A model generated the notes under the pieces. The model saw only the letters and a list, made by a program, of their open reading frames with translations. It did not search any database and was not told the origin of the DNA. Made by a program: the position numbers and the translations under genes. From Fibrobacteria bacterium (GTDB taxonomy: Bacteria > Fibrobacterota > Fibrobacteria > UBA11236): DNA of 55,871 nucleotides. Shown here in pieces: positions 1 to 14,080 of this stretch; the stretch's first letter is position 1; every line of letters starts with the position of its first letter. The stretch covers positions 1 to 55,871 of the forward strand of contig JAYUHW010000011.1 in the NCBI GenBank assembly GCA_043766615.1, given 5' to 3'.

Positions 1-2
1 AA

Positions 3-149
3 CTTTCCGAACTGGGATCTGGCTATACTAAGGGTAGTCAAGTCACCCTGCACTGGGACGGTCGAAACTATCGTACTCAAATAGTGTTCATTCGGGTGCT
101 TCTGGATGGACACTCCACATGGCATAAGTGGATTGGCCGCGATCATTAA
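3..149 (+). CDS. 3' end of a gene entering the window; C-terminal FlgD-Ig/T9SS-like sorting-type tail
   Basis: Frame 3 is open from the window edge to TAA at 147-149: LSELGSGYTKGSQVTLHWDGRNYRTQIVFIRVLLDGHSTWHKWIGRDH*. The 'LHWDGRN...IVFIRV' pattern resembles FlgD-Ig/CTD tails. Not in the ORF track because it has no start codon. Confidence 0.55.
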   Translation, partial: LSELGSGYTKGSQVTLHWDGRNYRTQIVFIRVLLDGHSTWHKWIGRDH

Positions 150-192
150 CTCGTCCAGGCTTCTCCAAGCTACCTTAGTTTCAAAATAAATT

Positions 193-219
193 TAAGATTC
201 CAAATTATATTACCGATAC
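193..219 (+). promoter_or_regulatory. Putative sigma-28 (FliA)-type promoter
   Basis: TAAGATTC (193-200)-N11-ACCGATAC (212-219) matches the TAAAGTTT-N11-GCCGATAA consensus with exact spacing, upstream of the ORF at 265. Confidence 0.5.
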
Positions 220-264
220 GACTTTTGGGGGGCGCTGCATGAGTTCCCTATTTCAAGGAGTCGT

Positions 265-945
265 ATGGAAAGTATTTCCATTCAGGCGTATTCTGCGCAA
301 TTGCGTATTTATTCAAGTTCAACGGATCCTCCGAAACCGAAATTGGCTGATCCTTCAAGTGGAACTTCATCCAATACTGCAAATCGTTCTTCCGATTTAC
401 AAAACCAGGATGGTGATTCGTTCACGATGAGTCTGGAGGCTAGAATAATCCAGATTTCCATGACGCGTTCCGACGACGGCGCGCAGATTTCCGGCAAAGG
501 GATTGGCCGGACGCAGGGAATGGATTCCCAGGAGAACGATTCGCAATCTGGTGGAGTATTCGGTTCTGGATTGGTTAAAGCCCTGATGCAAGCCTTAGGA
601 GGATTCCTTGGGAATGATGGGGCCAGTGCCACCGACAAGGCTGTACCGGTCGAGTCGGATGGTATTCCGGAACATAGGCACCACAACCACTCTCGCACAG
701 GTCATATGGGTAATCCAGAAGAAGTGGCGAGTAAGGTGCTCCAGCATCTGCAATTGGAGCATGCGGAAAGGGGCGGTTCCTTGCAAACCTTTGTGGATGA
801 CATTCAAAAGCGGATGGAGAATCGAAGAAATGACCGAAACAGCAAGGCGGACGCGTCTGGCAGCTTTCGATCTGAAGTCGATTCACTGATTACATCCGGT
901 TTAAATGCATGGGCTCAGACAGGAGGTTCTTCTCTGCAAACTTGA
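265..945 (+). CDS. Hypothetical Ser-rich protein with His-rich patch and helical C-terminal domain
   Basis: 226-aa ORF, RBS AAGGAG at 255-260; low-complexity N-terminal half, EHRHHNHSRTGH patch, helical C-terminus. Confidence 0.75.
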   Translation: MESISIQAYSAQLRIYSSSTDPPKPKLADPSSGTSSNTANRSSDLQNQDGDSFTMSLEARIIQISMTRSDDGAQISGKGIGRTQGMDSQENDSQSGGVFGSGLVKALMQALGGFLGNDGASATDKAVPVESDGIPEHRHHNHSRTGHMGNPEEVASKVLQHLQLEHAERGGSLQTFVDDIQKRMENRRNDRNSKADASGSFRSEVDSLITSGLNAWAQTGGSSLQT

Positions 946-1039
946 ACTCTATCTCTAAAAGGTATTTTGGTTTTTAAGGCACGGAGGCCCATGGTGAAAG
1001 GCAAGGACGCCTTTTCTCTCGAAAAATAAACACACTAGG

Positions 1040-1849
1040 CTATTCCGTAACGTTCAACGTATTGAATGATTTATAAAATGATGCGACAAGGGTCGCATAC
1101 AGTGCCACGTTATGACTGCTATCAATTAAGGCAAATTCCAATCCGTTTTTATCCACTACAATATCAATTTTTGAAAAGTCCACATTTGCAATCCACTTAT
1201 TCGGGAAAAATTCAATTTGACAATTGTATGCTTTAACCTTGTACCACCCAAGCAAGGCGGTTTTTGAATATGTCATGTGAATTTCATTAGCTGTTGGTAA
1301 GGAAAACAGAAAATGAGTGCCCGAACTGGTCGATCCAGAAGTGGATTTCAAATTACCAACATCGGAAAGGACTCCTTTTATATATCCAATATCCGAAAAC
1401 CCTGTAAAATCCATGGCAGTCGGATTCAGCGCTCTATGTTCATCGACCTTGAACTCCAAATTGATATTTTCCGGGACCTGTGAACCTAATTTTTCCACTT
1501 TAAGATTGGCGTTTTTATCGGCACCGGTAAAATCGACTGGATCACTGATGGAATCTTCCGCCCACAGCAATTTCTGAATTGTGGTATGTGTGACGCTGTC
1601 TTTTAGTGTATACGAGGCTTCATGCACTAACATTTTAAAATGCTGAATAAGTATCGAATCGCTCTTGGAGGATTTTGCCGCATACTTTCCCATTCCAAGG
1701 ATAACCGGATTTTCAGAATAGTCTATTTTGAATTCCGTACGCAGCAGCCTCTCGTCTTCCGCATTGCCGATCTCCGTGAAACACCCATTTGAAAAAAATA
1801 AAATTCCGGTCAAAACCAATAGAATGAATGGGCGCGCCGTGCAGTTCAT
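1040..1849 (-). CDS. Putative lipoprotein of unknown function
   Basis: Hydrophobic signal ending LFFSNG-C followed by FTEIGN; ATGA overlap with the stop of the upstream TIGR02147 gene. Confidence 0.8.
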   Translation of the reverse strand: MNCTARPFILLVLTGILFFSNGCFTEIGNAEDERLLRTEFKIDYSENPVILGMGKYAAKSSKSDSILIQHFKMLVHEASYTLKDSVTHTTIQKLLWAEDSISDPVDFTGADKNANLKVEKLGSQVPENINLEFKVDEHRALNPTAMDFTGFSDIGYIKGVLSDVGNLKSTSGSTSSGTHFLFSLPTANEIHMTYSKTALLGWYKVKAYNCQIEFFPNKWIANVDFSKIDIVVDKNGLEFALIDSSHNVALYATLVASFYKSFNTLNVTE

Positions 1850-2694
1850 TTTGTTTTCCCTTTGCTGAGTGGGAAAAGCTGAATATTCACCTGGACGATT
1901 CTATCGCCGTCGCCGTCTGATGCAGCAAAATTACGCAACTCTTTACGCATAAGTTGAATTTGCTTCTTCAAATTTGGCAATTCGGATTCCTTAATGGCGA
2001 AACATACCGAGGAAATATCACGTTCTTTACCCGGCACTTCATCTTGCGCCCAGCCGGCCAGTTTGAGCATTTGAGCGTGGTAATTCTTAACTAGAAAAGA
2101 CTTAATTTCATCATCCGTTGTAATATCCGGCTCAGCTGGCTTGTAGCCGTTGGCCGTCTTTTTAATCACACCGGAAACTAGGAGCATTGATAAAGCTTCC
2201 TCGACTTCGTAGGGTTCAACCCGTGGCAGCAATTGACTTGAAATCCAGGCTGGACTATTCCGAAAGCCTTTTAAATTGAGCATTTCACGAATCACGATAT
2301 TATACCACTTTCGAAAAATCTGGAGTTGCGATACCTCCAGTTTTTGGAAGGTGGATTTCGAGGTGGATTGTACCAGTTTCTGGTAATAAAAATTCTTTTC
2401 TTCCAAAGTAAGTGCTTGGTTGAAAAACACCAAGTTTTCAAAATATTGCGTACGCTCTTTATCTAAATCAAGCGCGTCTGACAATTTGACTAAAGTTTTT
2501 TTACTGAGGTTTCGCTTGCCTTCCATCAAAAATTTCAGCAAACCATGGCTTGGGAATTTTGCCTTTTTAGCGAAGAAGCGCAATGAAAATTTTGGGTTCG
2601 CCTGCTTCTGAGCCTGGTAATAGTCCTGTAAATATTGCCGGTAGTTCGAATAGTTGAGGAGATCCGGCAACTTGATGGTGCTCTTCATAAACAT
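1846..2694 (-). CDS. TIGR02147 family protein (HTH + DUF4423-like)
   Basis: Y.NYRQYLQDYY, FSLRFFAKKA, GKRNLS, YFENLVFFNQA, WYNIVIRE, ERDISS, VQVNIQLFPLS motifs typical of this family. Confidence 0.9.
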   Translation of the reverse strand: MFMKSTIKLPDLLNYSNYRQYLQDYYQAQKQANPKFSLRFFAKKAKFPSHGLLKFLMEGKRNLSKKTLVKLSDALDLDKERTQYFENLVFFNQALTLEEKNFYYQKLVQSTSKSTFQKLEVSQLQIFRKWYNIVIREMLNLKGFRNSPAWISSQLLPRVEPYEVEEALSMLLVSGVIKKTANGYKPAEPDITTDDEIKSFLVKNYHAQMLKLAGWAQDEVPGKERDISSVCFAIKESELPNLKKQIQLMRKELRNFAASDGDGDRIVQVNIQLFPLSKGKTK

Positions 2695-2857
2695 AAAAAG
2701 TAACCTCGATTAAAGCCTTTGCCTGGACTTTTAATGGTGGCTTGTACACAAAAGAGTACAGAACATGGCCAGTGCGAAGCCCCAATCTTCACGCCTTCAT
2801 TAACTTATCAAAATGCGGACGAATGCAAATCAGACCAATCCTAGAAATAATGATGAA

Positions 2858-3625
2858 ATGGGGCTTTTCAAGTTAAGCTACCTGGCCGTAGTGGGTTGCT
2901 TAGTAATAGTAAACTGCGAATTTGCGCCTAAATTAGCCGTGCAATCGGACCTATTGGCAGGATCTGGGTCAACGCCAGCTTCTCAAAAGGGGCCGAGTTG
3001 CAATAGCTGCCACACCTATCCATTGCATGATGTGAATCACAATTACCACCTAATGTCTGCCAACGTCAATCGAAACAACCTAGGCCAGCCGGAGCTGAAT
3101 GCCGTTACTACCTGTATGGATTGTCATTTCAATTCCATCCGTCACTTTTCCTATGTCCATTCCGATACCACCTGGATGGTCTCAAATGGAGTAGAGCTTA
3201 CCGGGCATTTTCATGCAAGCGACAAGATTATGAAGACTGTCAGCTACCCAAGGTGGCGCCCTCTACCCTATGCGAATATGGATACCACGCGTAAGGAAGC
3301 CTTGGCAACGGAAATCGACTCCTTGGTGTTTCGTCAAGCCCGCATGGGTGAAATGGTTGAATGGATGACATCTTGGGCGCATAACAACGGCGTAGTCGAT
3401 GTTGCCTTTGCACCCAATGATATCACGAAACCGGAATTTTTGGTTTCAGCCTACCGCCCAAAAGATTTGTCCTGTTCAACCGTTACCTGTCATAATCAGC
3501 GTGATCCCGGCTATCGCTGGATGTCACCCAGACTTGGACTGAGCAATTGCCCGTCACTAGATGGTCATGATCCTACTTGTCCTGGTGAAGTAGGGCCACC
3601 CGTTTCCCCATCGGTAGCCCCATGA
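2858..3625 (+). CDS. c-type cytochrome lipoprotein (two CxxCH plus one CxxxxCH motif)
   Basis: CNSCH (2999), CMDCH (3113), CSTVTCH (3473); signal-like MGLFKLSYLAVVGCLVIVNC. Start placed at ATG 2858 rather than 2813. Confidence 0.75.
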   Translation: MGLFKLSYLAVVGCLVIVNCEFAPKLAVQSDLLAGSGSTPASQKGPSCNSCHTYPLHDVNHNYHLMSANVNRNNLGQPELNAVTTCMDCHFNSIRHFSYVHSDTTWMVSNGVELTGHFHASDKIMKTVSYPRWRPLPYANMDTTRKEALATEIDSLVFRQARMGEMVEWMTSWAHNNGVVDVAFAPNDITKPEFLVSAYRPKDLSCSTVTCHNQRDPGYRWMSPRLGLSNCPSLDGHDPTCPGEVGPPVSPSVAP

Positions 3626-3852
3626 ATAAAATGAATCGGGACAGCATATTTATCTGCTTCATAATTTTGGTAACCTTGGCGTTACTGAGCGGATGCGCCT
3701 TTGTTCCCCAGGCCAATCGCGAATTCTTAAGCGACCCTATCATGCAACGGCATGATGACAATTTGGAAAGCGCTCTGGAAGGCCATGACATGCCACGTCG
3801 TGAGGGATCGGTGGGCGGCAGTTCCGGTTCAGGTGGCGGTTGCGGATGTTAA
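3622..3852 (+). CDS. DUF4266-family small lipoprotein
   Basis: Lipobox LLSG-C, 'REFLSDPIM', C-terminal REGSVGGSSGSGGGCGC; directly precedes DUF3570 as is typical. Confidence 0.85.
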   Translation: MNKMNRDSIFICFIILVTLALLSGCAFVPQANREFLSDPIMQRHDDNLESALEGHDMPRREGSVGGSSGSGGGCGC

Positions 3853-5033
3853 GTAATTACACGGCAAACCACGCTCTGACGTGGATTGTTATTTGTTGCG
3901 GGCTCCTGCAGGCAGAGTCGGGAAACACTTTAGAAATTAAGCATGAGTATTTCTGGGACCGAAACAGGGTCTGGAATCATACGCCCAGTTTCTCGTTGAA
4001 AAAATATTTTTCCAGAAGTTGGAGCCTGGGTTGGGAGCAGGAGTTGGACATTGTCAGCGGTGCCTCCCGAAGACTCGGTGCCGATAAGGTTGGACTATTT
4101 GGAAATCGGGAAGTAGATGCCGTTTCCAATGCATCCAAAGTGGAGGTCCGGCATTCCGAAAATCCTTCTCTAACTTATTCTCATAAAGGGGTGGCAATAG
4201 ACGCCTCATACTATATCAGCAGGGAAAACGATTATTTCTCTCAATCACCCGCTGGTTCCATCGCGTGGGATTTCAATGATCGAAACACTACACTAGGTGT
4301 GAACTATGCTGAATTCTTCGATAGGTTTGTACCCAAAGGCGCATACACTGGATTGGGAGGCAGGAAACGCATCACCAGTATGGGTGGAACCGTTGCGCAG
4401 TCCCTAACCTCATTAACTTTGGTTGGACTAACCGCGACCTGGATACAAAGCCATGGCTTTCTGGGGCACCCCTACAATCCTCCCGTTGACGTAAGTGGAA
4501 CCATGCTTTTGGAAAAAGTACCCGACACCAAACAGGCCGTGGCCTTATCAGGACAAATCGTTCAGGGGTATCATGTAGGTCAACGACTTGGATCCATAAA
4601 CCTGGATGCCCGCAGGTATCAAGATGACTGGGGAATGAAATCTTCGACCATTGATTTCAAATTGAGCCAGTATTTTACAGAGACCTCTTTTATCCGTTTT
4701 CGTCTAAGGTATTACAACCAATCCGGTTCTGTTTTTGCTAAACCCACGTATACAGGTCAGGAAACCTATCGGACGGGGGATATCCGATACTATCCGTTTA
4801 CATCCTGGCTTGGGGGTGTAAAAATCTCATCCGTTTTTCCTGACAGCTGGGGAGAATCCCTTTTCCTCCCGGATCGTTGGGATATCAAATATGATCAAAC
4901 TTTTCGGGATACGCGCGGGGATCCCGTTGGCACTGGCGCAGGAGTTCCTCGAAGTATTACCTATCAGCTCTATGCACCTGAAGATGCATATATGCAGGGC
5001 GTGTTTATGTTTGGCCTGTCTTTCAATCTATAA
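3846..5033 (+). CDS. DUF3570-family outer-membrane beta-barrel, predicted flavinylation substrate
   Basis: DIVSGAS (4047-4067), DAVSNAS (4116-4136), SRENDYFS, DFNDRNTTL, GFLGHPYN, RRYQDDWGM, RLRYYNQ; alternating C-terminal strand ending FGLSFNL. ATG 3846 overlaps the DUF4266 stop. Confidence 0.85.
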   Translation: MLSNYTANHALTWIVICCGLLQAESGNTLEIKHEYFWDRNRVWNHTPSFSLKKYFSRSWSLGWEQELDIVSGASRRLGADKVGLFGNREVDAVSNASKVEVRHSENPSLTYSHKGVAIDASYYISRENDYFSQSPAGSIAWDFNDRNTTLGVNYAEFFDRFVPKGAYTGLGGRKRITSMGGTVAQSLTSLTLVGLTATWIQSHGFLGHPYNPPVDVSGTMLLEKVPDTKQAVALSGQIVQGYHVGQRLGSINLDARRYQDDWGMKSSTIDFKLSQYFTETSFIRFRLRYYNQSGSVFAKPTYTGQETYRTGDIRYYPFTSWLGGVKISSVFPDSWGESLFLPDRWDIKYDQTFRDTRGDPVGTGAGVPRSITYQLYAPEDAYMQGVFMFGLSFNL

Positions 5034-5045
5034 AGGAGAACCATA

Positions 5046-5723
5046 ATGAAAATTTATTTACCCCATATGCTCTTCAAAACAGTCGCTCTATTTTGCATTG
5101 CTGGCCTATTTCAAGCTCAGGCCGCCAAGTTCACCAGATTACCTGAATTCACACTGCCGGATGTCGATGGAAAGGCTTGGAGCAGTTCCGCATTAAATGG
5201 AAAAGTATGTGTGGTTGATTTTTGGGCGACATGGTGCAATACCTGTAAGGAAACCATTCCCAAACTCGCCGAGCTGAGTAGTAAATACAAGGACCAAGGG
5301 CTTGTGGTGGTCGGAATCAGTGTTGACAAAGGCTCTTCCGAAAAAATAAGCAAGTCCGCAAAAAAACTTGGCATCAATTATTTGGTTTTACTCGATAAGG
5401 ACAATTCGCTCAGTAAATCCTTTGGCTTCACGGGCATCCCTTCTCTATATGTTTTTGACGGTCACGGAAATTTGAAAACAGCGATGCCGGGATACGATCC
5501 CGATCAAGAAAAACAACTGACCATTGCTACGGATCAGGCCCTAGCCGATCAAGTCGCGGAAACCGATAAGTTCAAGTCAATGGAGAAGGATAAGGAAAAA
5601 GAGAAAGAAAACGCCCGACTGGAAGAATTGGCCTTGGCCTCAAAAACGCAGGAAGGCTCGAGCAAAGTGTCGCATACCCGCGATGTTAAAAATAAAAAAA
5701 CCAAAAAGAAGGCGGGAACATGA
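5046..5723 (+). CDS. TlpA/ResA-like thiol-disulfide oxidoreductase with Lys/Glu-rich tail
   Basis: Signal peptide, VVDFWATWCNTC, GIPSLYVFD; RBS AAGGAG upstream. Confidence 0.92.
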   Translation: MKIYLPHMLFKTVALFCIAGLFQAQAAKFTRLPEFTLPDVDGKAWSSSALNGKVCVVDFWATWCNTCKETIPKLAELSSKYKDQGLVVVGISVDKGSSEKISKSAKKLGINYLVLLDKDNSLSKSFGFTGIPSLYVFDGHGNLKTAMPGYDPDQEKQLTIATDQALADQVAETDKFKSMEKDKEKEKENARLEELALASKTQEGSSKVSHTRDVKNKKTKKKAGT

Positions 5724-6418
5724 TCAGCAGTCAAAACTTAAGCACAGCTCTTTCAACCGGTTCCATTGGGGCCATAGTGTTGTGCTTCTTAGCAGGAGTT
5801 GGTTCCAGCTTTACCCCATGCATTTACCCTTTGATTCCCGTTACGATAAGTATCCTGGGCACTCGAAATGCGGAATCAAAATTTCGCGGATTCTTACTCA
5901 CCCTGTTTTACGTTGGAGGGATTGCCACAACTTACGCAGCCCTGGGAATGGTGGCAGCATTCACAGGCTCCCTATTTGGTTCCCTAAGCTCCAATTCATG
6001 GGTGCTCCTGGGCGTGGCCGCAGTTGTCATGGCCCTTGCGCTTAATATGCTCGATGTTTTTCAAATCAATTTTGCTCGACTCACTATGGGCGGGAACGGC
6101 CAGCATAAACAAGGGTTGTTTTCAAATTTTATCTATGGTTTGACGTTCGGACTTGTGGCCTCACCCTGCACGGCACCTCCACTAGCTGTCATACTCGCTT
6201 GGGTTGGATCTACGCACAATGTAATCATGGGTCCTTTGCTCCTTTTTGTTTTTGCTTTGGGTATGGGTTCCATTCTGATTATGATTGGCACATTCTCCTC
6301 TTTTCTCACCCGACTTCCACGTTCCGGCATGTGGATGGTCTACATCAAAAAAATCATGGGTTACATGATGGTTTTGATGTCAGGGTACTTCGTATTCCAA
6401 GCCGGCGTTCAATGGTAA
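5720..6418 (+). CDS. DsbD/CcdA-type transmembrane electron transporter
   Basis: About six hydrophobic helices with redox Cys motifs SFTPCIYPLIP and ASPCTAPPL, and LPRSGMWM. Confidence 0.92.
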   Translation: MISSQNLSTALSTGSIGAIVLCFLAGVGSSFTPCIYPLIPVTISILGTRNAESKFRGFLLTLFYVGGIATTYAALGMVAAFTGSLFGSLSSNSWVLLGVAAVVMALALNMLDVFQINFARLTMGGNGQHKQGLFSNFIYGLTFGLVASPCTAPPLAVILAWVGSTHNVIMGPLLLFVFALGMGSILIMIGTFSSFLTRLPRSGMWMVYIKKIMGYMMVLMSGYFVFQAGVQW

Positions 6419-6443
6419 AACCATCAATTAAATGGAGTCAAAA

Positions 6444-7232
6444 ATGAACAGAAAAATTATTTCAACTGCCACGGCAATTCTGATCACTTTCCTCTGCATA
6501 ACACGAAATAACGTAGTCGCCCGTCCCGATGCAGTCTCAGCCGCCAGCCTAACAGTAGCCGTCACCAGCGTAACGGCTACCACCGCTGTCATTACTTATT
6601 CAAAGGACAAATATGATTACGGAACACGGACGCTTTGTTATGATCCCGCTCCAGCTGTAGCGAAGAACAATTGCACAATTAAAAATGCCGCTGGAAATCA
6701 AGGAACATTCACCATCTCCGGATTAACATCCGGCATCGTCTACAATTTCAATATTCAAGCCATTGATACCCAAGGAGGAGAGAAACCTTATGCAACTGCT
6801 GGTTCCTTTACAACCTTAACTTCGACGGTTGTTTCTCCCGCTAGTATATCTACCCAGCCAGCCAATCAAACCGTCAAAGTCGGCTCAGCAGCGACATTTA
6901 GTGTTATTGCTGCAGGCACCCCCACCTTGACCTACCAGTGGCGGAAAGGCACGGTTAATATCAACGGCGCCACTTTGGCCAGCTATACGACGCCAGCAGC
7001 GGTAATTGGTGACAATGGCAGCCTGTATTCCGTAGTAATTAATAACGGTGCCATGCAACCTGTTACAAGTGCGAACGCAATTTTGACCGTACAACCCGTT
7101 ACCCAAATCGTATCCAATTCCCAAAGACTGCACGATTCCCATTCTATCCACGGCGAAGCCTATGATCTTAAGGGGCGGTCCATTCTTAAAAAAGGTAACC
7201 ACGCAGCTTCCTCCGTAGGACCCATAAAATAG
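6444..7232 (+). CDS. Secreted FN3 + Ig-like domain protein with N-terminal DAVSAAS motif and C-terminal sorting-like tail
   Basis: Signal peptide; FN3 (ISGLTSGIVYNFNIQA); Ig (ISTQPANQTV...LTYQWRK...DNGSLYSVVI); tail AYDLKGRSI. ATG 6444 has RBS GGAG. Confidence 0.8.
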   Translation: MNRKIISTATAILITFLCITRNNVVARPDAVSAASLTVAVTSVTATTAVITYSKDKYDYGTRTLCYDPAPAVAKNNCTIKNAAGNQGTFTISGLTSGIVYNFNIQAIDTQGGEKPYATAGSFTTLTSTVVSPASISTQPANQTVKVGSAATFSVIAAGTPTLTYQWRKGTVNINGATLASYTTPAAVIGDNGSLYSVVINNGAMQPVTSANAILTVQPVTQIVSNSQRLHDSHSIHGEAYDLKGRSILKKGNHAASSVGPIK

Positions 7233-7253
7233 TTTTGGCCCAATCCCCGTTCT

Positions 7254-7299
7254 GATTCTCCCCCTACTCCTGTTCCAGGGGAGAATCCTATATTTTTTT
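7254..7299 (+). terminator. Putative intrinsic terminator
   Basis: GATTCTCCCC (7254-7263) / GGGGAGAATC (7278-7287) 10-bp stem followed by CTATATTTTTTT. Confidence 0.5.
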
Positions 7300-7301
7300 C
7301 C

Positions 7302-7307
7302 TATAAT
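7302..7307 (+). promoter_or_regulatory. Candidate -10 element for apbE
   Basis: Exact TATAAT about 30 nt upstream of the apbE ATG; no clear -35. Confidence 0.3.
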
Positions 7308-7338
7308 AGAATCCTGTATACCTTGCAAGGAAGTTAAA

Positions 7339-8385
7339 ATGCCGTTCCGATTCGTGGCTCCATTTTTGGCCTTATTTATTATCAATTGCCAAGAGACGAC
7401 AAGAACACACAATTGGTTTGCCATGGATACGAACATGGCCGTTTCCCTTTTTGGGTCCACCCCTGTTTCCGATGACAGTGTCTTTTACCGTCTGGAAGCC
7501 GAAACAGAACGATTAAACCTTCTCTTTAGTGATTTCTCATCCCGTTCCGCTTTATCAGAAATAAAGGGTCACATCGGTGATACGGTAATGGTGCACCCGG
7601 AAATATATCAAGTTCTAAAAATCGCACTAGATGTAGGCGAAGCCACTCACGGTTCTTTTGATATCACCCTGCATGATTTGAAATGGATGTGGGGCCTCGG
7701 AAGTGGACAAACCGGTCACATACCAGATTCGACAAGCTTAGATTCCCTTCTGAAGGAAAATCCTACGTATCATTCGCTGTGGGAGACGCCCAACCATAGG
7801 CCTCCGCTGACCTTACTTCCAGGCAATCGAGCCGTGCTGCATCGCGAAAATACCCAAATTGATTTAGGCGCTATCGCCAAGGGTTTTATAGTGGATAAGC
7901 TACATGCATTGCTCGATTCCCTTGGTTGCCCCAACCATATTCTACAAGCCGGAGGAGAAATTCGGCTCGGTGGAAAAAAACAGTCCGGCGCCTGGAGCAT
8001 CGGCATACGACATCCCCGCGCGGCAGATTCCTTGAGCGGTTTGATTTCAACTACCACCCCTAAAGCTATTTCTACATCCGGGGATTATGAACGGTTTTTT
8101 GAATCCGATGGAAAACGTTATCATCACATCTTTGATCCCCGAACAGGTAAACCGGCACCCGTATATTGTGGTGTGACTGTTGTTACAGATTACAGTGTTT
8201 GGGCCGATGCCATGTCCACGTCGCTTTTTATTCTTGGCCCGGAAAAAGGCATGCCTGTAGCGCGTCAGTATCATACCAGCGCAGTTTGGTTTGAGGCGCG
8301 GCCTACTGGGTTATGCGCCATCCCCATGCCGGAAATTTTGCCCTTACTAAATCTACAGGGAATTTCTACCTGCAGCTCCCGATAA
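7339..8385 (+). CDS. apbE: FAD:protein FMN transferase (ApbE/FmnB), lipoprotein
   Basis: FAMDT, GSFDIT, IDLGAIAKGFIVD, AGGEI, WSIGIRHPR, ISTSGDYERF, RYHHIFDPRTG, ADAMST. Confidence 0.97.
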   Translation: MPFRFVAPFLALFIINCQETTRTHNWFAMDTNMAVSLFGSTPVSDDSVFYRLEAETERLNLLFSDFSSRSALSEIKGHIGDTVMVHPEIYQVLKIALDVGEATHGSFDITLHDLKWMWGLGSGQTGHIPDSTSLDSLLKENPTYHSLWETPNHRPPLTLLPGNRAVLHRENTQIDLGAIAKGFIVDKLHALLDSLGCPNHILQAGGEIRLGGKKQSGAWSIGIRHPRAADSLSGLISTTTPKAISTSGDYERFFESDGKRYHHIFDPRTGKPAPVYCGVTVVTDYSVWADAMSTSLFILGPEKGMPVARQYHTSAVWFEARPTGLCAIPMPEILPLLNLQGISTCSSR

Positions 8386-8393
8386 GGCCAGTA

Positions 8394-8786
8394 TTGCAAA
8401 CCCGCACATTTTTTCGCCCATTCGACGTTCTTGTTATCCTGTTAGTAATTGGTTCCGGCGCATGGGCCATGCTGACTTTTCGTTTTACTGAAGGCAGCCG
8501 AGCAGTCGTCTACATCGCCAATAAAAAATTCGCCTGGTACCCTTTGGCAGGCGAGACAAAACGGATCGCCATCCCATCTCAAATAGGAATAGTGTGGCTA
8601 GAAATAGGATCGGGCACAGCACGCGTAGTCAGCTCACCCTGTCCCAATAAACTTTGTGTTAAAACCGGAGTGGTTCGCCACAGCCATGAAGAAATCGTTT
8701 GTCTTCCGGCCAAGCTCCTGCTGACACTAGAAGGCCAAGATGGACCCGGACCCATGAAAGCCGGAGCCGATGCCATCACCTATTAA
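8394..8786 (+). CDS. NusG domain II (DUF1312/EetA-like) membrane-anchored protein
   Basis: N-terminal TM; SSPCPNKLCVKTG and IVCLPAKL motifs. TTG 8394 after TAAGG preferred over ATG 8313, which overlaps apbE by 73 nt. Confidence 0.85.
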   Translation: MQTRTFFRPFDVLVILLVIGSGAWAMLTFRFTEGSRAVVYIANKKFAWYPLAGETKRIAIPSQIGIVWLEIGSGTARVVSSPCPNKLCVKTGVVRHSHEEIVCLPAKLLLTLEGQDGPGPMKAGADAITY

Positions 8787-9876
8787 GAAATTAAATCTCA
8801 ACGCGGTGAAGCCACAGGCTTTTGCCTTGGCACTATTGATTGCTACCAGTCTGCAAATCATGGAAAACCTGGTGCCGCGCATTCCACTGTTTCCCTGGAT
8901 GCGAATTGGGCTTTCCTATGTCATTATTCTCCCTTTTCTCCTCGAGTACGGTGCGGCCCCCGCCTTTACACTTCTCCTGGCCCGTAACCTAATTGCCGTT
9001 CTATACGGTGGCCAACCGTTTTCGACGTTCCTGATCGGTACGGGAGCCGGTGCCCTGGCACTGTTGGGCCTGGGGCCAATGATTCGTTGGCTCACCCATC
9101 AGCGATTTCTGGGCGTTCTTGGTGCGAGTGTTCTTTTAGCCACAGCTTTTAATTTGGCGCAATTGGCATTGGTCAAATGGCTGCTCATTCGCCATGCAGG
9201 TTTCTATTTCATGATTGGACCCATGTTGGCTTGGTCGCTTTTTTCTGGAGGGCTCGTGGCCGCGTTGGTCCATTATTCCGAATCCGATTTATCGCGCATG
9301 TTCACGATAAGCGATAGTGGACCCCAAACTCAACCCGTGAGTCCATCCACGATTTCAAAACAGCCTTTCAACAACTTGCACTTTGGCTTTGGTTTAGCCG
9401 CCCTAGTTGGATTACTCCTTGGCAATTTATTTTGGATTCAAATTCCAGCACTGATTATTCTCATCTGGTTCTCACCCGATCGCGGTAAGCGGCTCATAGC
9501 TGCGTGGCCTTTTTTCTTCTACATCGCCTATCTGCACTTGTTCCATACACCGGGGAAGTTCTTTTTTAGAGACTGGGTAACCTATGAAGGACTGTCCCAA
9601 TTTGGCGTCAATTCCTTGCGGCTCGCCAATACCATTTTACTCGGCAGGATGCTGTCGCAAAAGTTTCCCTGGAAACTGGCTAGAAATGCTAAATCGCCTT
9701 ACTTGCAAGGCTTTCTCATGTCGTTGCCGTTGCTGACTAATATGTTTGAATCGAGTATGGAATTTGGTAGAGTGATTGGTAGGCAGTTTTTAAAGGGTCA
9801 ACGAAAGGGTTTGCTCACACCGGCCTTTGAGGCGTGGCGAACCAAAATGGATGCTGGGACCAAAGATGCCCTTTAA
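8770..9876 (+). CDS. Gx transporter family (EetB-like S-component) with C-terminal EcfT/CbiQ-like extension
   Basis: N-terminal LQIMENLVPRIPLFPWMRIGLSYV and AFNLAQL are Gx/Hpre_diP_synt_I-like; C-terminal half HLFHTPG...VTYEGL...SLRLANTILL resembles the EcfT coupling subunit. Confidence 0.75.
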   Translation: MPSPIKKLNLNAVKPQAFALALLIATSLQIMENLVPRIPLFPWMRIGLSYVIILPFLLEYGAAPAFTLLLARNLIAVLYGGQPFSTFLIGTGAGALALLGLGPMIRWLTHQRFLGVLGASVLLATAFNLAQLALVKWLLIRHAGFYFMIGPMLAWSLFSGGLVAALVHYSESDLSRMFTISDSGPQTQPVSPSTISKQPFNNLHFGFGLAALVGLLLGNLFWIQIPALIILIWFSPDRGKRLIAAWPFFFYIAYLHLFHTPGKFFFRDWVTYEGLSQFGVNSLRLANTILLGRMLSQKFPWKLARNAKSPYLQGFLMSLPLLTNMFESSMEFGRVIGRQFLKGQRKGLLTPAFEAWRTKMDAGTKDAL

Positions 9877-9890
9877 ATGATGCGTAGCTT

Positions 9891-11210
9891 TTAAAAAAAG
9901 TAGGCAACTTTGCTGGACCAATACCATTCACTGGGCTTGAAAAGTACGGCTTCCATCGCTGGTGGATTATTGTCTCCGTAGCCTTTGAAAATGCCGGGAC
10001 GGAAATGATCACTGGCAGCTTGGATGCTTATTTTAACATGCTTTTGAAACACCTTAGACCCATATAATGACCATTTAAAATTATCTTCGGAATAGTTGGT
10101 ATCCAACTTCCCGATAGGAAATGGTGTAGGTGCACCGTAATGGTTATAACCAGATAAATCGTCTTTGAATTTTGCAGTATACCTCTCAAACTCAAAAGAG
10201 AGCCGATCCAAAACCTTGAAAGTAGGCAAATTAATGCCAACCATAATTGGCATCCTATTTGAATAATTTCCGTAAAGAGCCCTGTATGGTAAACCATTGT
10301 CCAATCCAAGGAGGGCTACCTCCCCGTAGATTTTTAAATCCTCTGGACCAATTAATTCCAAATGCCCGAAAAGTGCCTTAAGGTCAATGGAGGCATTGGC
10401 CATGACTTTAGTCCCTTTAAAGGAAATCCGAGTTGTATCGTCCACTACTGGTAATGTATCAATATAAATATTATTGGTATCAGATGTTATCTTGTTATCG
10501 ATCGGAATCATGTGATAAAAATTGACCCCAGCTCCAATTCGGAAGAACCTACCAAAAGTATAGCTCGTAACATATGCTGGAGAAATGTCCCAGTAGGGAT
10601 AATATTCTGTTTCAAAGGCAAACAGAATATCGTTTTCAAAGCCACCTGTTTGGTGGTGGAATTGAAAACCTAAAGTATTGGCAACGGGCAGTACGTATTT
10701 CGTTTCAAAACCGGATAGCACATATCCTGGATAGACCGGCCCGCGCAATAAGTACAGGCCCAAATTTTGGGCATCAGGATTATAATCATACGCGAATAGC
10801 CCGGCACGAACGGAAAATTTGGTTTCGCCTTCATCCAAAACTCTGTAGTTGAAATTAGCGTTGGAGACATAAGGTGACACATCGACAGGAGCATATCCCC
10901 CCTCTCCATAATTTGCGGACAAAGAATGCCCGGCAACAGCACCAATGCCAGCCTCGATTCTAAGTTTTTCGGAAGGATTAATTGCAAAAGAGAACTGGGC
11001 TCCTGAGGAAATGAGCGGCTTCCAATCTAACCGTTTCCCTTGCGTCGTATCACTGCTTTTTACAATTGAAGCATACTGCATCCAGCCTGCTGCATGAAAT
11101 GTTTTGTTCGAAAAATCGACAGCATGTACTGACGTAGCGACCATTGCTATTGCACTTATCCCTTTGACGCCATTAATGCGAAGGATTTTCAAAAATGTGC
11201 AAAGACTCAT
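9891..11210 (-). CDS. Uncharacterised outer-membrane beta-barrel protein, paralogue 3
   Basis: Signal peptide, YDYNPDAQNLGLYLLRGPVYPG, C-terminal WYWSSKVAYFF beta-signal. Confidence 0.8.
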   Translation of the reverse strand: MSLCTFLKILRINGVKGISAIAMVATSVHAVDFSNKTFHAAGWMQYASIVKSSDTTQGKRLDWKPLISSGAQFSFAINPSEKLRIEAGIGAVAGHSLSANYGEGGYAPVDVSPYVSNANFNYRVLDEGETKFSVRAGLFAYDYNPDAQNLGLYLLRGPVYPGYVLSGFETKYVLPVANTLGFQFHHQTGGFENDILFAFETEYYPYWDISPAYVTSYTFGRFFRIGAGVNFYHMIPIDNKITSDTNNIYIDTLPVVDDTTRISFKGTKVMANASIDLKALFGHLELIGPEDLKIYGEVALLGLDNGLPYRALYGNYSNRMPIMVGINLPTFKVLDRLSFEFERYTAKFKDDLSGYNHYGAPTPFPIGKLDTNYSEDNFKWSLYGSKVFQKHVKISIQAASDHFRPGIFKGYGDNNPPAMEAVLFKPSEWYWSSKVAYFF

Positions 11211-11228
11211 TGATGCCTTCCTGAAGTC

Positions 11229-12566
11229 CTAGAAAAAATACGCAAGTTTAGTAGTCCAATACCAATCTTCAGGCGTTCGCATCGCCTCGATTCCTGCGTC
11301 CTGATCGTGGTTTCCGCCTAAACGCAGGTGATCGTTTGCGACCTGGGTAGATAATGCCAGGTTTCCAAGCAAAACCTTTGAAACATTCACCGACCATTTC
11401 CAATCGTCTCGTTTAGTATTGATTCGAGGATCGTCCACAACTGAGACCCAAGATCCGTTTCGAGCAGCTAAATTATCACCTGAAAGTTTGTTGGCATAAT
11501 ATTCGATTTCTATTGAAGAAGTCAGGAAATTAAAACCTGGAAGGTTGACTCCGAACATAATAGGCATGCGGCGTAGGATCTTGTTATACAACTTGGCATA
11601 GTTATGCACGCCAATAATTCCAACTTCACTGTAGATTACCAAATCATCTTTTCCAAAAAGACTTATTGCGTTTGAAAAAAAAGCTTTTGGATCCAATCTT
11701 AAGCGCGCGATGGCTTTAACGCCGCCCAAGGAACCGAGAATTGTATCGATAACTACCCCAGAAGTATCCTTGACGACAATAAAACACGGATTTTCTTGCC
11801 CTCCGTTGGCATACGGGCCGAGGAAGTTCGCGTTACAATCCTTGCCAGGTGAGGTAAGTTTCTTATTCATAGGAATCAAACGGCTGAAATTAATGCCAGC
11901 ACTGAGATCAAATCCTTTAAAGGCCGAAATTGTCATGACATCTGCAACAGAAATATCGTAAATTGGCTTCTCATCCATTTCGGCATTGACAATTAAATCA
12001 TTTTGCCAGGATCCTGCTTTCAATTTCCCAATCATTCCAAAAATATTTCCGGAACCAGAAACCAAGGTACCTGGATAAACATACCCGTGTAATAGATATA
12101 ATCCCAGATTCTTGGCATCAGGATTGTAAGTGTAGCCCATGGAACCAAAACTGAATTGTAAGCCACTCCCAACTGCATAGCCGCCCGAAGAGTAAGTCAA
12201 ACGGGCTTCTGATACAAATGGGACCCAAAAGGGATACCATTTATTAGCCTGCCCCGGAGCGCCTCTGGCCAAATGGACCATTATGGTTCCTATACCTAAA
12301 CCGCCGTCCCAATTATTATCAATCACAGCTTTAGAGGTTAGAACTGCACCTGAATTTCCAAGCCAATTATTTTCATAATCGTTGCCGTTACCAGGCAGTG
12401 AAAAACTATTCTCCACCCGTCCCAATTGAAGCCACCCTGCTCCATGGTATTCCAATTTTAATTCCTGAGACATTGCGCCATTCGAAATCGCACTCATTAA
12501 GAATACCCAAACTAAAACCTGCGTCAATGGCGACCTCGTTGCCCATGCATTCGGATGGCGACTCAA
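11229..12566 (-). CDS. Uncharacterised outer-membrane beta-barrel protein, paralogue 2
   Basis: YTYNPDAKNLGLYLLHGYVYPG, ends WYWTTKLAYFF; start placed at TTG 12566 (TTGA overlap with the upstream stop). Confidence 0.8.
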   Translation of the reverse strand: MSRHPNAWATRSPLTQVLVWVFLMSAISNGAMSQELKLEYHGAGWLQLGRVENSFSLPGNGNDYENNWLGNSGAVLTSKAVIDNNWDGGLGIGTIMVHLARGAPGQANKWYPFWVPFVSEARLTYSSGGYAVGSGLQFSFGSMGYTYNPDAKNLGLYLLHGYVYPGTLVSGSGNIFGMIGKLKAGSWQNDLIVNAEMDEKPIYDISVADVMTISAFKGFDLSAGINFSRLIPMNKKLTSPGKDCNANFLGPYANGGQENPCFIVVKDTSGVVIDTILGSLGGVKAIARLRLDPKAFFSNAISLFGKDDLVIYSEVGIIGVHNYAKLYNKILRRMPIMFGVNLPGFNFLTSSIEIEYYANKLSGDNLAARNGSWVSVVDDPRINTKRDDWKWSVNVSKVLLGNLALSTQVANDHLRLGGNHDQDAGIEAMRTPEDWYWTTKLAYFF

Positions 12567-14080
12567 AAGAAATACCCCATCCGAATTAAGAAATACCAAT
12601 CTTTGGGGGAAGCAAAAGCTTCTTGAGTTCCACCTTCAGCCTTTATTAATCCTGTCGCCACTGGCTTAGGCCTATAATGATCGTTTGCTACCTGACCAGA
12701 AATCCTGATATGATTGCTGATGACTTTTTCGGCGAGCACGGACCATTTGATATTATCCAAGGTTTGATTTTCCTTGTCTAGCGCCGTACCTTTGACACGA
12801 ACAGTATCTGCCTTTGCAGGATCGATTGGATCCGGTTTGATCCAGAAGCCAGTAAGAGTATCGATGCCATAATCCGCATAGCCAACCGGTTTTGGAGAGG
12901 GAATGGGATGGTTTTGAATTGTCCAACCTGCTACCGTATTATTGTTTCCAACGCGGGCGAGATCGCTGCGATACAAAGCGCCATAATATTCAACTTCAAG
13001 GGAAAGATGCGTCAACCAACCGCCCGTAGGAAAATTGAACCCCAACATCAGGGGGATGCGCTGTGAAATATCAGCATATGCTTTCCCATAATTTTTTAAA
13101 CCAATCACACCAACTTCCCCGTATAACTTTAGGTCTTCTGGATTTGATAATTGTTTCCCTAGTGTCTTTTGAAGGTCCAATCCGAACATCCCCATCAGCT
13201 TGGTGCCTTGGTGCGTGAAAAAAATTGTGTCAGTGGAACCGGGTGTCGTTTCAACATATCGACTCTTTTTGAATCCCAATTCCGCATCACTGAAATATTT
13301 TCCGGGTGTTTCCAATTTTGATTTATAGGCAAGTAACCGATAAAAATTTACACCGGCTCCAATTTCAAGTGGGCCTGCCTGAAATTTTGCGATATAGGCA
13401 AGACTCCAATCCAATGTCGGAGGAATTTCTCGTTCACAATTCAAAATCAAATCATGTGAAATGGCACCAATTTTTTGATGCAGGTTCAATCCTAAAATCG
13501 TACTTTTTGTCGTATCAACTGCAAAGTCCTGGTATCCACTCATCAGAATGCCTGGGTAAACGGGTCCACGCAGCAAATACAAGCCCAGGTTTTTGACATC
13601 AGCATTGTATTTATAAGGAAAACTGCCAAGGGTTATGCTTAGCGAAGGTGCAACTTTCTCTCCAAGAAAATAAGTTAATCGGGATTGAGTAAGGAAATTC
13701 TGGAAAAGTGAAATAGCCATCAGTTGTTGGGAGCCATTCCCAAGCGAATGGTTTATTTTCTGCACTCCAAAGCCGACCGCACCCACCAGGTTTTCCGAAA
13801 GATCAGCCTCAACTGTAAACTGAGCGCCCATACTCTGGAGAGTATTACCATTTAAATTGAGAACATTGTTTGGGGCTGCACCTCTTATCAGCGTATCAGT
13901 CATATGCATGATTCGACCGCCATCAAACCACGCCTGACCGTGGATTTGAAAGACTGGCGTCAATTCCGAGTAGGAAAAGGAAGCCAACAATCCAAGGGCT
14001 ATTCCGCCTAGCGCAAGGGGTTGCATTGCCAAAAATATTTTTTGTGACATAAATTTTTTGACTTGCTTCATCTGAATCAC
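12563..14080 (-). CDS. Uncharacterised outer-membrane beta-barrel protein, paralogue 1
   Basis: YKYNADVKNLGLYLLRGPVYPG, ends WYFLIRMGYFF; signal peptide; exact start uncertain. Confidence 0.8.
   Translation of the reverse strand: MIQMKQVKKFMSQKIFLAMQPLALGGIALGLLASFSYSELTPVFQIHGQAWFDGGRIMHMTDTLIRGAAPNNVLNLNGNTLQSMGAQFTVEADLSENLVGAVGFGVQKINHSLGNGSQQLMAISLFQNFLTQSRLTYFLGEKVAPSLSITLGSFPYKYNADVKNLGLYLLRGPVYPGILMSGYQDFAVDTTKSTILGLNLHQKIGAISHDLILNCEREIPPTLDWSLAYIAKFQAGPLEIGAGVNFYRLLAYKSKLETPGKYFSDAELGFKKSRYVETTPGSTDTIFFTHQGTKLMGMFGLDLQKTLGKQLSNPEDLKLYGEVGVIGLKNYGKAYADISQRIPLMLGFNFPTGGWLTHLSLEVEYYGALYRSDLARVGNNNTVAGWTIQNHPIPSPKPVGYADYGIDTLTGFWIKPDPIDPAKADTVRVKGTALDKENQTLDNIKWSVLAEKVISNHIRISGQVANDHYRPKPVATGLIKAEGGTQEAFASPKDWYFLIRMGYFF

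Follow-up and report, generated by a model that had tools for sequence, protein, structure and literature searches.

A flavinylation operon of Fibrobacteria with a trihaem cytochrome lipoprotein: a candidate envelope-spanning redox relay

Gene clusters termed DsbD systems combine ApbE, DUF3570, a thioredoxin-like protein, DUF4266 and DsbD, as described in PMC8238504 (Meheust et al., 2021, eLife), where clusters of the type Trx-DUF4266-DUF3570-ApbE (Trx, thioredoxin), 285 with DsbD and 316 without it, are presented as a flavinylation unit. The same text describes flavinylation of the DUF3570 protein of Chlorobium luteolum at two [S/T]GA[S/T] sites, and its authors call the function of the DsbD system uncertain. 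Here, we analyze a locus of this kind in a soil or freshwater member of the Fibrobacteria (assembly GCA_043766615.1; 469 contigs, 78.8% complete), in which the described module is joined by a predicted trihaem c-type cytochrome lipoprotein. The window, i.e., the whole stretch of DNA that was analyzed, comprises 55,871 nucleotides of contig JAYUHW010000011.1; the locus, at positions 2813-9876, consists of nine open reading frames (ORFs), all on the + strand, with four overlapping junctions and remaining gaps of 12, 13 and 106 bp.

The resemblance to the system of Meheust et al. is close. The five families are present and adjacent, the DUF3570 protein carries [S/T]GA[S/T], the DUF4266 protein has a C-terminal CXC, and the proposed flow runs from DsbD through thioredoxin to the flavin. 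That these five families form a described flavinylation module had been stated in a first-pass annotation of this DNA, and the published text bears this out (PMC8238504). Several components are added here: a trihaem lipoprotein cytochrome as the first gene, with haem proteins at other DUF3570 loci; a fibronectin type III (FN3) protein with a flavinylation-type motif; and EetA and a long EetB within the operon. Moreover, the thioredoxin of the window matches AhpC-TSA, Redoxin and Thioredoxin_8, whereas the paper counts PF13899, and the second DUF3570 site is degenerate here. The main text of PMC8238504 does not mention fibronectin, FN3 or Fibrobacter, and uses "outer membrane" for TonB receptors only.

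EetB (PF07456) is the S subunit of an energy-coupling factor (ECF) exporter of flavin adenine dinucleotide (FAD), in which FmnA is the ECF-T subunit, according to the text of Rivera-Lugo et al. (2023, mBio, PMC9973259). There, 2,169 genomes are reported to have eetB beside apbE and 3,328 to have it beside eetA, and the partner systems named are Rnf, extracellular electron transfer (EET), MsrQ-like and NapH-like. The EET locus of Listeria (Light 2018, as summarised in PMC9973259) comprises Ndh2, the lipoprotein PplA, which binds flavin mononucleotide (FMN), DmkA/DmkB, FmnB, EetA, EetB and FmnA. Only ApbE, NusG_II and PF07456 are common to that locus and the one described here, and no Pfam matches of the Ndh2/PplA/DmkA type (NADH dehydrogenase, FMN_bind, prenyltransferase) occur among the nine genes, where their accessions were not specifically searched. 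The first-pass annotation had read the locus as a merger with the Listeria EET locus; this did not hold, as EetA and EetB are general FAD-supply partners of ApbE. Thus, five of the nine genes are the known module, and two are its known cofactor-supply accessory.

The trihaem cytochrome and its linkage to DUF4266 and DUF3570

The first gene (2813-3625, +), whose true start is probably the ATG at 2858, where the signal peptide begins, encodes three haem motifs: CNSCH and CMDCH of the CxxCH type, at amino acids (aa) 63-67 and 101-105, and CSTVTCH of the CX4CH type, at aa 221-227. In an alignment of 17 orthologues and paralogues, the three motifs, the lipobox Cys35, and His76, His79 and His190 are invariant, and on these motifs the protein is read as a trihaem, bis-His, c-type cytochrome lipoprotein. 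It belongs to an unannotated family. No entry of Pfam or NCBIfam matched above its cut-off (the best, PF22113, reached 16.5 bits versus a cut-off of 30), and the 36 homologues found among 5.8 billion clustered proteins have zero precomputed Pfam domains; the few that are named are all "hypothetical". Because this family has no Pfam entry, Pfam-based surveys would have overlooked the main haem partner. An ESM-Atlas search with the cytochrome was uninformative (best score 0.85). The putative lipobox has Asn at position -1 both in the cytochrome (IVNC, 2906-2917) and in ApbE (IINC, 7378-7389); relatives carry Gly, Ala, Ser or Gln there, and Asn is unusual for the lineage, if both proteins are lipoproteins.

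This genome has five DUF3570 loci, and haem proteins accompany DUF4266-DUF3570 at four of them. Three are paralogous triads of cytochrome, DUF4266 and DUF3570 (C11, C469 and C330). The fourth (C201, i.e., L009, 5473-10424, -) encodes a 260-aa unknown protein, a 746-aa lipoprotein with a middle HZS_alpha domain and two CxxCH motifs, a thioredoxin, DUF4266 and DUF3570. The fifth (C81, i.e., L010, 2384-7484, -) has a DUF3570 gene with a DAVSSAS variant motif, without DUF4266 and without a haem-protein ORF. This DUF3570 gene lies two genes from a TonB-dependent receptor; a link to iron uptake, which would agree with the role in iron assimilation considered by Meheust et al., is possible at this locus. 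The operon of the window looks like a master locus, and the other triads like satellite modules that share one supply chain.

The linkage extends to the relatives. A cytochrome profile built from 8 closer sequences was searched against contigs of one genome per species and gave 26 loci, 18 of them in Fibrobacterota; DUF4266 and DUF3570 are present in the same locus in 16 of these 18, and the other two are an isolated gene and a locus at the end of a contig. The 8 matches in Sphingomonads cover residues ~31-115 only, have no DUF4266 or DUF3570 nearby, and were rejected as unrelated dihaem proteins. Among 41 genomes of the class, the cytochrome matched in 23 and DUF3570 in 29 (both tallies include the unpublished G011), and every genome with the cytochrome also has DUF3570. 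For the six genomes in which DUF3570 matched and the cytochrome did not, seven loci were inspected; in each of the seven, the ORF that directly precedes (Trx-)DUF4266-DUF3570 encodes two or more haem motifs. Three of these ORFs encode dihaem proteins of 317-781 aa (the 317-aa one may be cut short), two encode smaller dihaem proteins, and two encode diverged trihaem cytochromes, whose loci carry the whole cluster. The link of haem proteins to DUF4266-DUF3570 still holds among paralogues, in both gene orders, and where another haem-protein family takes the place of the cytochrome. Large dihaem proteins of the C201 type (757-781 aa) also head loci L084 and L085 in G021 and G026. In one relative, a single contig (G009:C70:14484-22475) carries four or more cytochrome paralogues in a tandem array together with two DUF3570 genes, which shows strong local expansion of the module.

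As judged by tblastn, all nine genes occur together in G003, G023 and G017, and eight of the nine in G006, G009, G018, G040, G032 and G034. ApbE is absent from the locus in G006 and G009, and the FN3 gene of G018 is present as an ORF that is too diverged for tblastn. Two gene orders were found, with the cytochrome either first or between dsbD and the FN3 gene (L049, L050, L052). The first-pass annotation had made its proposal depend on synteny of the cytochrome, FN3 and Eet-like genes with apbE/DUF3570 in other genomes, and such synteny was found in other genomes of Fibrobacteria. The arrangement exceeds chance, and recurs in relatives down to ~25-55% protein identity. The nine co-oriented genes listed in the annotation at 2858-9876 are real: Pfam hidden Markov models confirm seven of them, with the cytochrome recognized by its haem motifs and the FN3 protein by its relatives. 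Close relatives have a 709-841-aa CcsBA-like ORF; with such a haem lyase in close relatives, haem attachment is plausible in the lineage.

The DUF3570 barrel and its modelled complex

The second gene (3622-3852, +; PF14086, 2.7e-12) encodes the small DUF4266 lipoprotein, with a Gly-rich tail that ends in CGC; all 18 sequences compared have Cys25 and end in GGGCGC. The third gene (3840-5033, +; PF12094, 6.6e-29) encodes the DUF3570 protein. Its first flavinylation site is SGAS (aa 73-76), and the second is a degenerate SNAS (aa 96-99). Site 1 is [ST]GAS throughout, two distant paralogues excepted; site 2 is SGAS in most sequences, and non-canonical in the window and its two closest relatives (SSAS in L038). 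Of 20 DUF3570 proteins of relatives and paralogues that were compared, 15 contain at least two canonical motifs.

The AlphaFold2 (AF2) model of the DUF3570 protein, obtained with a 19-row alignment, is a barrel of 16 strands (mean predicted local distance difference test (pLDDT) 83.2; predicted template modelling (TM) score 0.79). Foldseek matched it to the outer-membrane barrels OccK, PelB, PgaA, BcsC and AlgE with probability 1.0; the TM scores were only 0.4-0.5, and DUF3570 is therefore a generic outer-membrane barrel, not a member of the matched families. The connections between strands alternate, with lengths of 4, 27, 3, 10, 23, 4, 25 and 23 residues on one face, and of 4, 2, 4, 4, 2, 5 and 13 residues on the other. 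The longest connection, of 27 residues (aa 74-100), carries the flavinylation sites and belongs to the long-loop face. Outer-membrane barrels have their termini and short turns in the periplasm and their long loops outside the cell. By this usual rule, the long-loop face of DUF3570 would be extracellular or folded into the lumen.

Modelling of a complex with DUF3570 had been suggested in the first-pass annotation, and its result favors a contact of the cytochrome with DUF3570. The complex model combined three proteins, DUF3570 (26-397), DUF4266 (25-76) and the cytochrome (35-270), with three haems, and scores were taken for the cytochrome as the partner. The interaction prediction score from aligned errors (ipSAE) of the cytochrome was 0.70 (median of three runs: 0.70, 0.67 and 0.70), versus 0.00 in each of the three controls; the runs had 76% or more of their contacts in common, and the partner pLDDT was at least 69. 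In the calibration of the tool, the mark is reached by 58 of 80 solved complexes and by 2 of 110 mismatched pairs, rates that apply only approximately here, given our own alignments of 17-19 rows and the ligand that rides along. The confidently modelled interface on DUF3570 comprises residues 211-234, 261-265, 297-310 and 361-373; these belong to the odd-numbered long connections and share their face of the barrel with the FMN loop. The cytochrome contributes residues 37-65, by the lipid anchor and around haem 1, and residues 185-194, with the invariant T186 and H190. The model thus supports a predicted binding of the cytochrome to DUF3570.

Thiol supply, flavin supply and a candidate flavin-tagged protein

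The fourth gene (5046-5723, +) encodes a periplasmic TlpA/ResA-like thioredoxin (AhpC-TSA, 5.3e-24; Redoxin, 2e-23). Its active-site motif WCNTC and the DUF4266 terminus CGC were both in the first-pass annotation, and both are present. In NCBIfam, ResA (NF002854) is the best match (4.6e-22), at 78.7 bits versus a cut-off of 170, and TlpA is also below its cut-off. The protein has a low-complexity C-terminal tail of ~58 aa that is rich in Lys and Glu (aa 167-225, window 5546-5723); among 12 thioredoxins of relatives and paralogues, only that of the closest relative, L037, has this tail, and the others end at 163-196 aa. The fifth gene (5720-6418, +; PF02683, 1.6e-44) encodes a CcdA-type DsbD that consists of the transmembrane domain only, a thiol-disulfide electron transporter. 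A second DsbD is encoded elsewhere in the genome, full-length (603 aa), with the transmembrane domain and Thioredoxin_7.

The seventh gene (7339-8385, +; PF02424, 1.3e-68) encodes ApbE, the FAD:protein FMN transferase, a probable lipoprotein and the single PF02424 match in the 78.8%-complete genome. The genome also encodes one FMN_bind protein, at a contig start. The eighth gene (8313-8786, +; PF07009, 6.2e-21) encodes an EetA-like membrane protein with a NusG_II domain; its true start is probably downstream of 8313, and the relatives' proteins have 126-161 aa.

The ninth gene (8770-9876, +; PF07456, 1.2e-17) encodes a "long EetB", in which the PF07456 half is followed by a C-terminal membrane extension. 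As in the EetB-FmnA exporter, the PF07456 half has a RibU-like ECF-S fold, and the gene adjoins the NusG_II/EetA gene and apbE: the N-half of the AF2 model (pLDDT 86.6) matches the RibU S-components 3p5n, 5kc0 and 5kbw with probability 1.0 and TM scores of 0.59-0.64. The locus differs from the exporter in the extra domain and in its partners. The extension, of ~170 aa, is conserved and membrane-embedded, with no assigned family. The 61 homologues of the long EetB have 267-439 aa (59 have at least 335 aa), and those that are named are all from Fibrobacteria. A HMMER profile of the C-half, searched against 1.84 billion representatives, found 36 clusters, nearly all at residues ~190-390 of proteins of 350-410 aa; in 10 of the 10 cluster proteins tested, PF07456 lies at the N-terminus and no other family is present.

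The first-pass annotation had labelled this protein Gx/EcfT-like, and the searches did not confirm an EcfT label for the C-half. The C-half has no Pfam match at E<=10, the PDB sequence search was also negative, and Foldseek with the whole model gave zero fold matches in PDB for this half; hhalign against 10 CbiQ proteins of relatives gave probabilities of 0.3-0.4% (28-row and then 21-row profile), and the HMMER results were likewise negative or non-significant for ECF-T. The one pointer towards ECF-T is the match to a "cobalt transport protein" cluster in ESM-Atlas, with a feature score of 0.91, which we take as no more than a lead. The ECF-T family PF02361 (FmnA) was not found in this genome, nor in 29 of the 41 genomes of the class. 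For the ECF ATPase, TIGR04520 gave at best 182 bits versus a cut-off of 315 in this genome (G000, 78.8% complete) and in G003 (100% complete), with TIGR04521 not searched. We infer from the sequences that the long EetB may work without a canonical ECF module.

The sixth gene (6432-7232, +) encodes a secreted FN3 protein, for which the Pfam matches are borderline (fn3, 20.3 bits versus a cut-off of 25; I-set, 23.9 versus 23.7); a precomputed PF00041 match exists in 15 of 40 homologues. The FN3 domain has two conserved Cys, and an extra immunoglobulin (Ig) domain before the C-terminal motif occurs only in the window and its closest relative. The ApbE motif is D-x-x-[S/T]-G-A-[S/T], and seven residues are enough, with terminal tags working best, according to a 2025 review (PMC12052999); a study cited there reports that a change of Gly to Ala in the motif kept ~50% of flavinylation in a model enzyme. 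The predicted mature N-terminus of the FN3 protein, after cleavage of an ordinary Sec signal, reads D-A-V-S-A-A-S, and D-[AVI]-[VI]-[ST]-A-A-S stands directly past the predicted cleavage site in 38 of the 40 homologues. Where the other gene order occurs, all three loci have C-D-[AV]-T-T-G-A-S at the aligned position, i.e., the canonical ApbE motif. The FN3 protein is thus a candidate for a new substrate of ApbE; the motif also lends sequence support to the "secreted FMN protein" of the first-pass annotation. Flavodoxin_4 and FMN_red have been reported as new ApbE substrates (10.1101/2024.03.13.584918); in the passages of that preprint that were searched, no FN3 protein is named as a substrate and no haem protein as a partner of DUF3570, a domain name that is absent from the main text. 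The FN3 proteins (window 7160-7232; homologues P0100-P0137) have a C-terminal [YV]-D-[LVI]-[RK]-G-R followed by a basic tail, which is reminiscent of a sorting signal.

Upstream of the operon (1040-2694, -) lie a divergent DUF4423 gene (1846-2694, -; PF14394, 4.9e-38) and a gene for a 269-aa protein without a family. The DUF4423 gene is a possible regulator of the operon, which does not imply membership in the machinery, and the two may be a regulator and a co-regulated lipoprotein. In L052, a similar pair (306-aa and 269-aa ORFs) lies upstream of the cluster, its divergent gene having been judged by eye from the translation. On the other side is a convergent 439-aa ORF (9891-11210, -) without a Pfam or NCBIfam family; with its signal-like N-terminus and its end ...AYFF, its product looks like an outer-membrane barrel. 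Two further ORFs without a family lie beyond it (11229-12599 and 12563-14080). The promoter and terminator scan of the region stayed at chance level, and the Rfam scan of 1-14000 found zero families, e.g., no FMN riboswitch.

A possible relay, its alternatives and known systems

What the data show directly is the gene content and its synteny, the motifs, the folds of the barrel and of the ECF-S half, and a complex model that passes. We read the nine genes as encoding an envelope-spanning redox relay with a supply half and an electron path to an outer-face cytochrome and an acceptor; we give this reading about an even chance. The long EetB and EetA would export FAD, and ApbE would transfer FMN from it onto the DUF3570 barrel, probably before insertion into the outer membrane; the N-terminus of the FN3 protein would probably be flavinylated too. 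Reducing equivalents of cytoplasmic thioredoxin would cross to the periplasm through CcdA and reach the TlpA-like thioredoxin, which would reduce the C-terminal CGC of the DUF4266 lipoprotein. The DUF4266 dithiol would then reduce FMN on the long-loop face or in the lumen of the barrel, and FMN would convert two-electron thiol chemistry into one-electron steps that feed the three bis-His haems of the docked cytochrome. By the usual barrel topology, the cytochrome would face the cell surface, and extracellular Fe(III) or another oxidant is our guess for the terminal acceptor. What we infer is all electron-transfer steps, the flavinylation of these proteins, surface exposure, the direction of flow and the physiological role.

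A number of observations weigh against the relay. The second DUF3570 site of the window is SNAS instead of SGAS, and the FN3 motif of the main gene order has Ala for the conserved Gly. Residues 78-99 of the FMN loop have pLDDT below 50, so that the modelled placement of this loop relative to the haems is of low confidence, and the complex score covers only the contacts of the cytochrome. Conservation of the DUF3570 interface residues extends through the whole family, paralogues with other haem partners included, and may have another cause. The relatives are kin, and the cytochrome and synteny counts are not independent. Electron flow fed by DsbD would be low-flux and would conserve no energy, and a respiratory role is unlikely. 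DUF4423 is the only Pfam family among the flanking genes, and the neighbourhood does not name the terminal acceptor. PF01578 gave a single match in the 78.8%-complete genome, to a HemX-like gene next to hemA. It should also be noted that the general barrel rule alone would put the cytochrome-facing side outside the cell. If the long-loop face, the FMN loop and the cytochrome lay instead towards the periplasm or in the lumen, the whole system would be periplasmic, serving redox housekeeping with no electron export at the surface: reductive repair, detoxification of oxidants, or thiol oxidation from a dithiol through flavin and haem to the respiratory chain. Signal peptides and lipoboxes place ApbE, TlpA and DUF4266 in the periplasm, a periplasmic enzyme would more easily reach a loop that faces the periplasm, and the candidate flavoprotein FN3 has an ordinary Sec signal, all of which would suit such an arrangement. 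Conversely, the first and last strands of the model have short turns opposite the docking loops, and known barrels put their long loops outside. The flavinylated DUF3570 of C. luteolum came from the insoluble pellet of E. coli, in the account given in PMC8238504, which we read as allowing modification before barrel assembly. We consider the periplasmic arrangement unlikely.

The remaining two explanations concern the cytochrome itself. CcdA and a ResA-like thioredoxin are the classical pair that reduces apocytochromes, and a cytochrome is encoded in the same operon; TlpA and CcdA could thus be only reductants of System II maturation, with the flavin module merely co-expressed with the cytochrome. 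The best NCBIfam match of the thioredoxin, ResA, points the same way, below its cut-off. However, the satellite triads of cytochrome, DUF4266 and DUF3570 lack TlpA and CcdA, the operon contains no PF01578, ResB or CcsBA gene, a full-length DsbD is available elsewhere in the genome, and the invariant CGC of DUF4266 requires a reductant or oxidant partner. In addition, Trx-DUF4266-DUF3570-ApbE(-DsbD) is known as a flavinylation unit from the clusters counted in the main text of PMC8238504. A purely maturational role is, in our view, very improbable. We attach equally little probability to the cytochrome being a lineage-specific neighbour with no physical or electron link to DUF3570, and the complex score an artefact. 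The score is the model's own confidence, obtained with shallow alignments (17-19 rows) outside the calibration, and the cytochrome family has no known relatives; yet the adjacency is kept across paralogues, both gene orders and different haem-protein families, and the score stands clear of its three controls.

A wider reading builds on the relay, and we hold it only tentatively, as something rather to be doubted. DUF3570 would be the pore of a new trans-outer-membrane conduit, in which a covalently flavinylated barrel replaces a threaded multihaem protein and a trihaem or, in paralogues, dihaem lipoprotein forms a cap at the surface. On the periplasmic side, the CXC lipoprotein, itself charged by DsbD and thioredoxin, would feed the barrel, with FMN converting two-electron into one-electron transfer between thiols and haems. 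The FN3 proteins would be a new class of ApbE substrates with a natural N-terminal "flavin tag", and the long EetB would be self-sufficient, exporting FAD with no canonical ECF-T/A module.

A known counterpart of such a conduit is MtrCAB of Shewanella, a porin-cytochrome conduit fed by quinol, in which a periplasmic multihaem protein is threaded through the barrel. Both have an outer-membrane barrel and a multihaem lipoprotein, which here would sit on the outer face, and both come as several paralogous modules per genome. In contrast to MtrCAB, a small CXC lipoprotein and covalent FMN would replace the threaded multihaem protein, the barrel has 16 strands, and the electrons would come from DsbD and thioredoxin. 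By sequence, the locus does not belong with MtrA, MtrB or MtrC, the sole match being that of the cytochrome to PF22113, at 16.5 bits versus a cut-off of 30. The chemistry has its precedent in the mitochondrial Mia40-Erv1-cytochrome c relay, where electrons pass from a dithiol to a flavin and on to a c-type haem, and the flavin converts two-electron into one-electron transfer. The likeness lies in this passage from thiol through flavin to cytochrome c; the proteins are unrelated, the mitochondrial flavin is the non-covalent FAD of a soluble enzyme, and the purpose there is thiol oxidation rather than electron export.

DUF4266, DUF3570 and TlpA are mentioned beside JDVT-CTERM proteins in a few species (10.1101/2023.06.07.544157), two macroalgal studies in which DUF3570 or DUF4266 occurs are unrelated, and literature searches on flavinylation with DsbD or thioredoxin, and on NusG_II with ApbE, gave nothing further, although supplementary tables may list such neighbours. 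Four features of the locus have no counterpart in the accessible texts: the trihaem family with DUF4266-DUF3570, the FN3 motif, the barrel with its FMN loop on the docking face, and the extension of EetB. With them, the DsbD/DUF3570 system, reported in several hundred genomes, would gain an output that is concrete and can be tested: electrons of thiols would reach haems at the outer membrane by way of flavin. A candidate short natural flavinylation tag on an FN3 domain and a variant of EetB whose FAD export may not need the usual ECF partners are put forward as well. If the relay is true, it would be a third design for electrons crossing the Gram-negative outer membrane, one that joins the worlds of thiol-disulfide exchange and haem.

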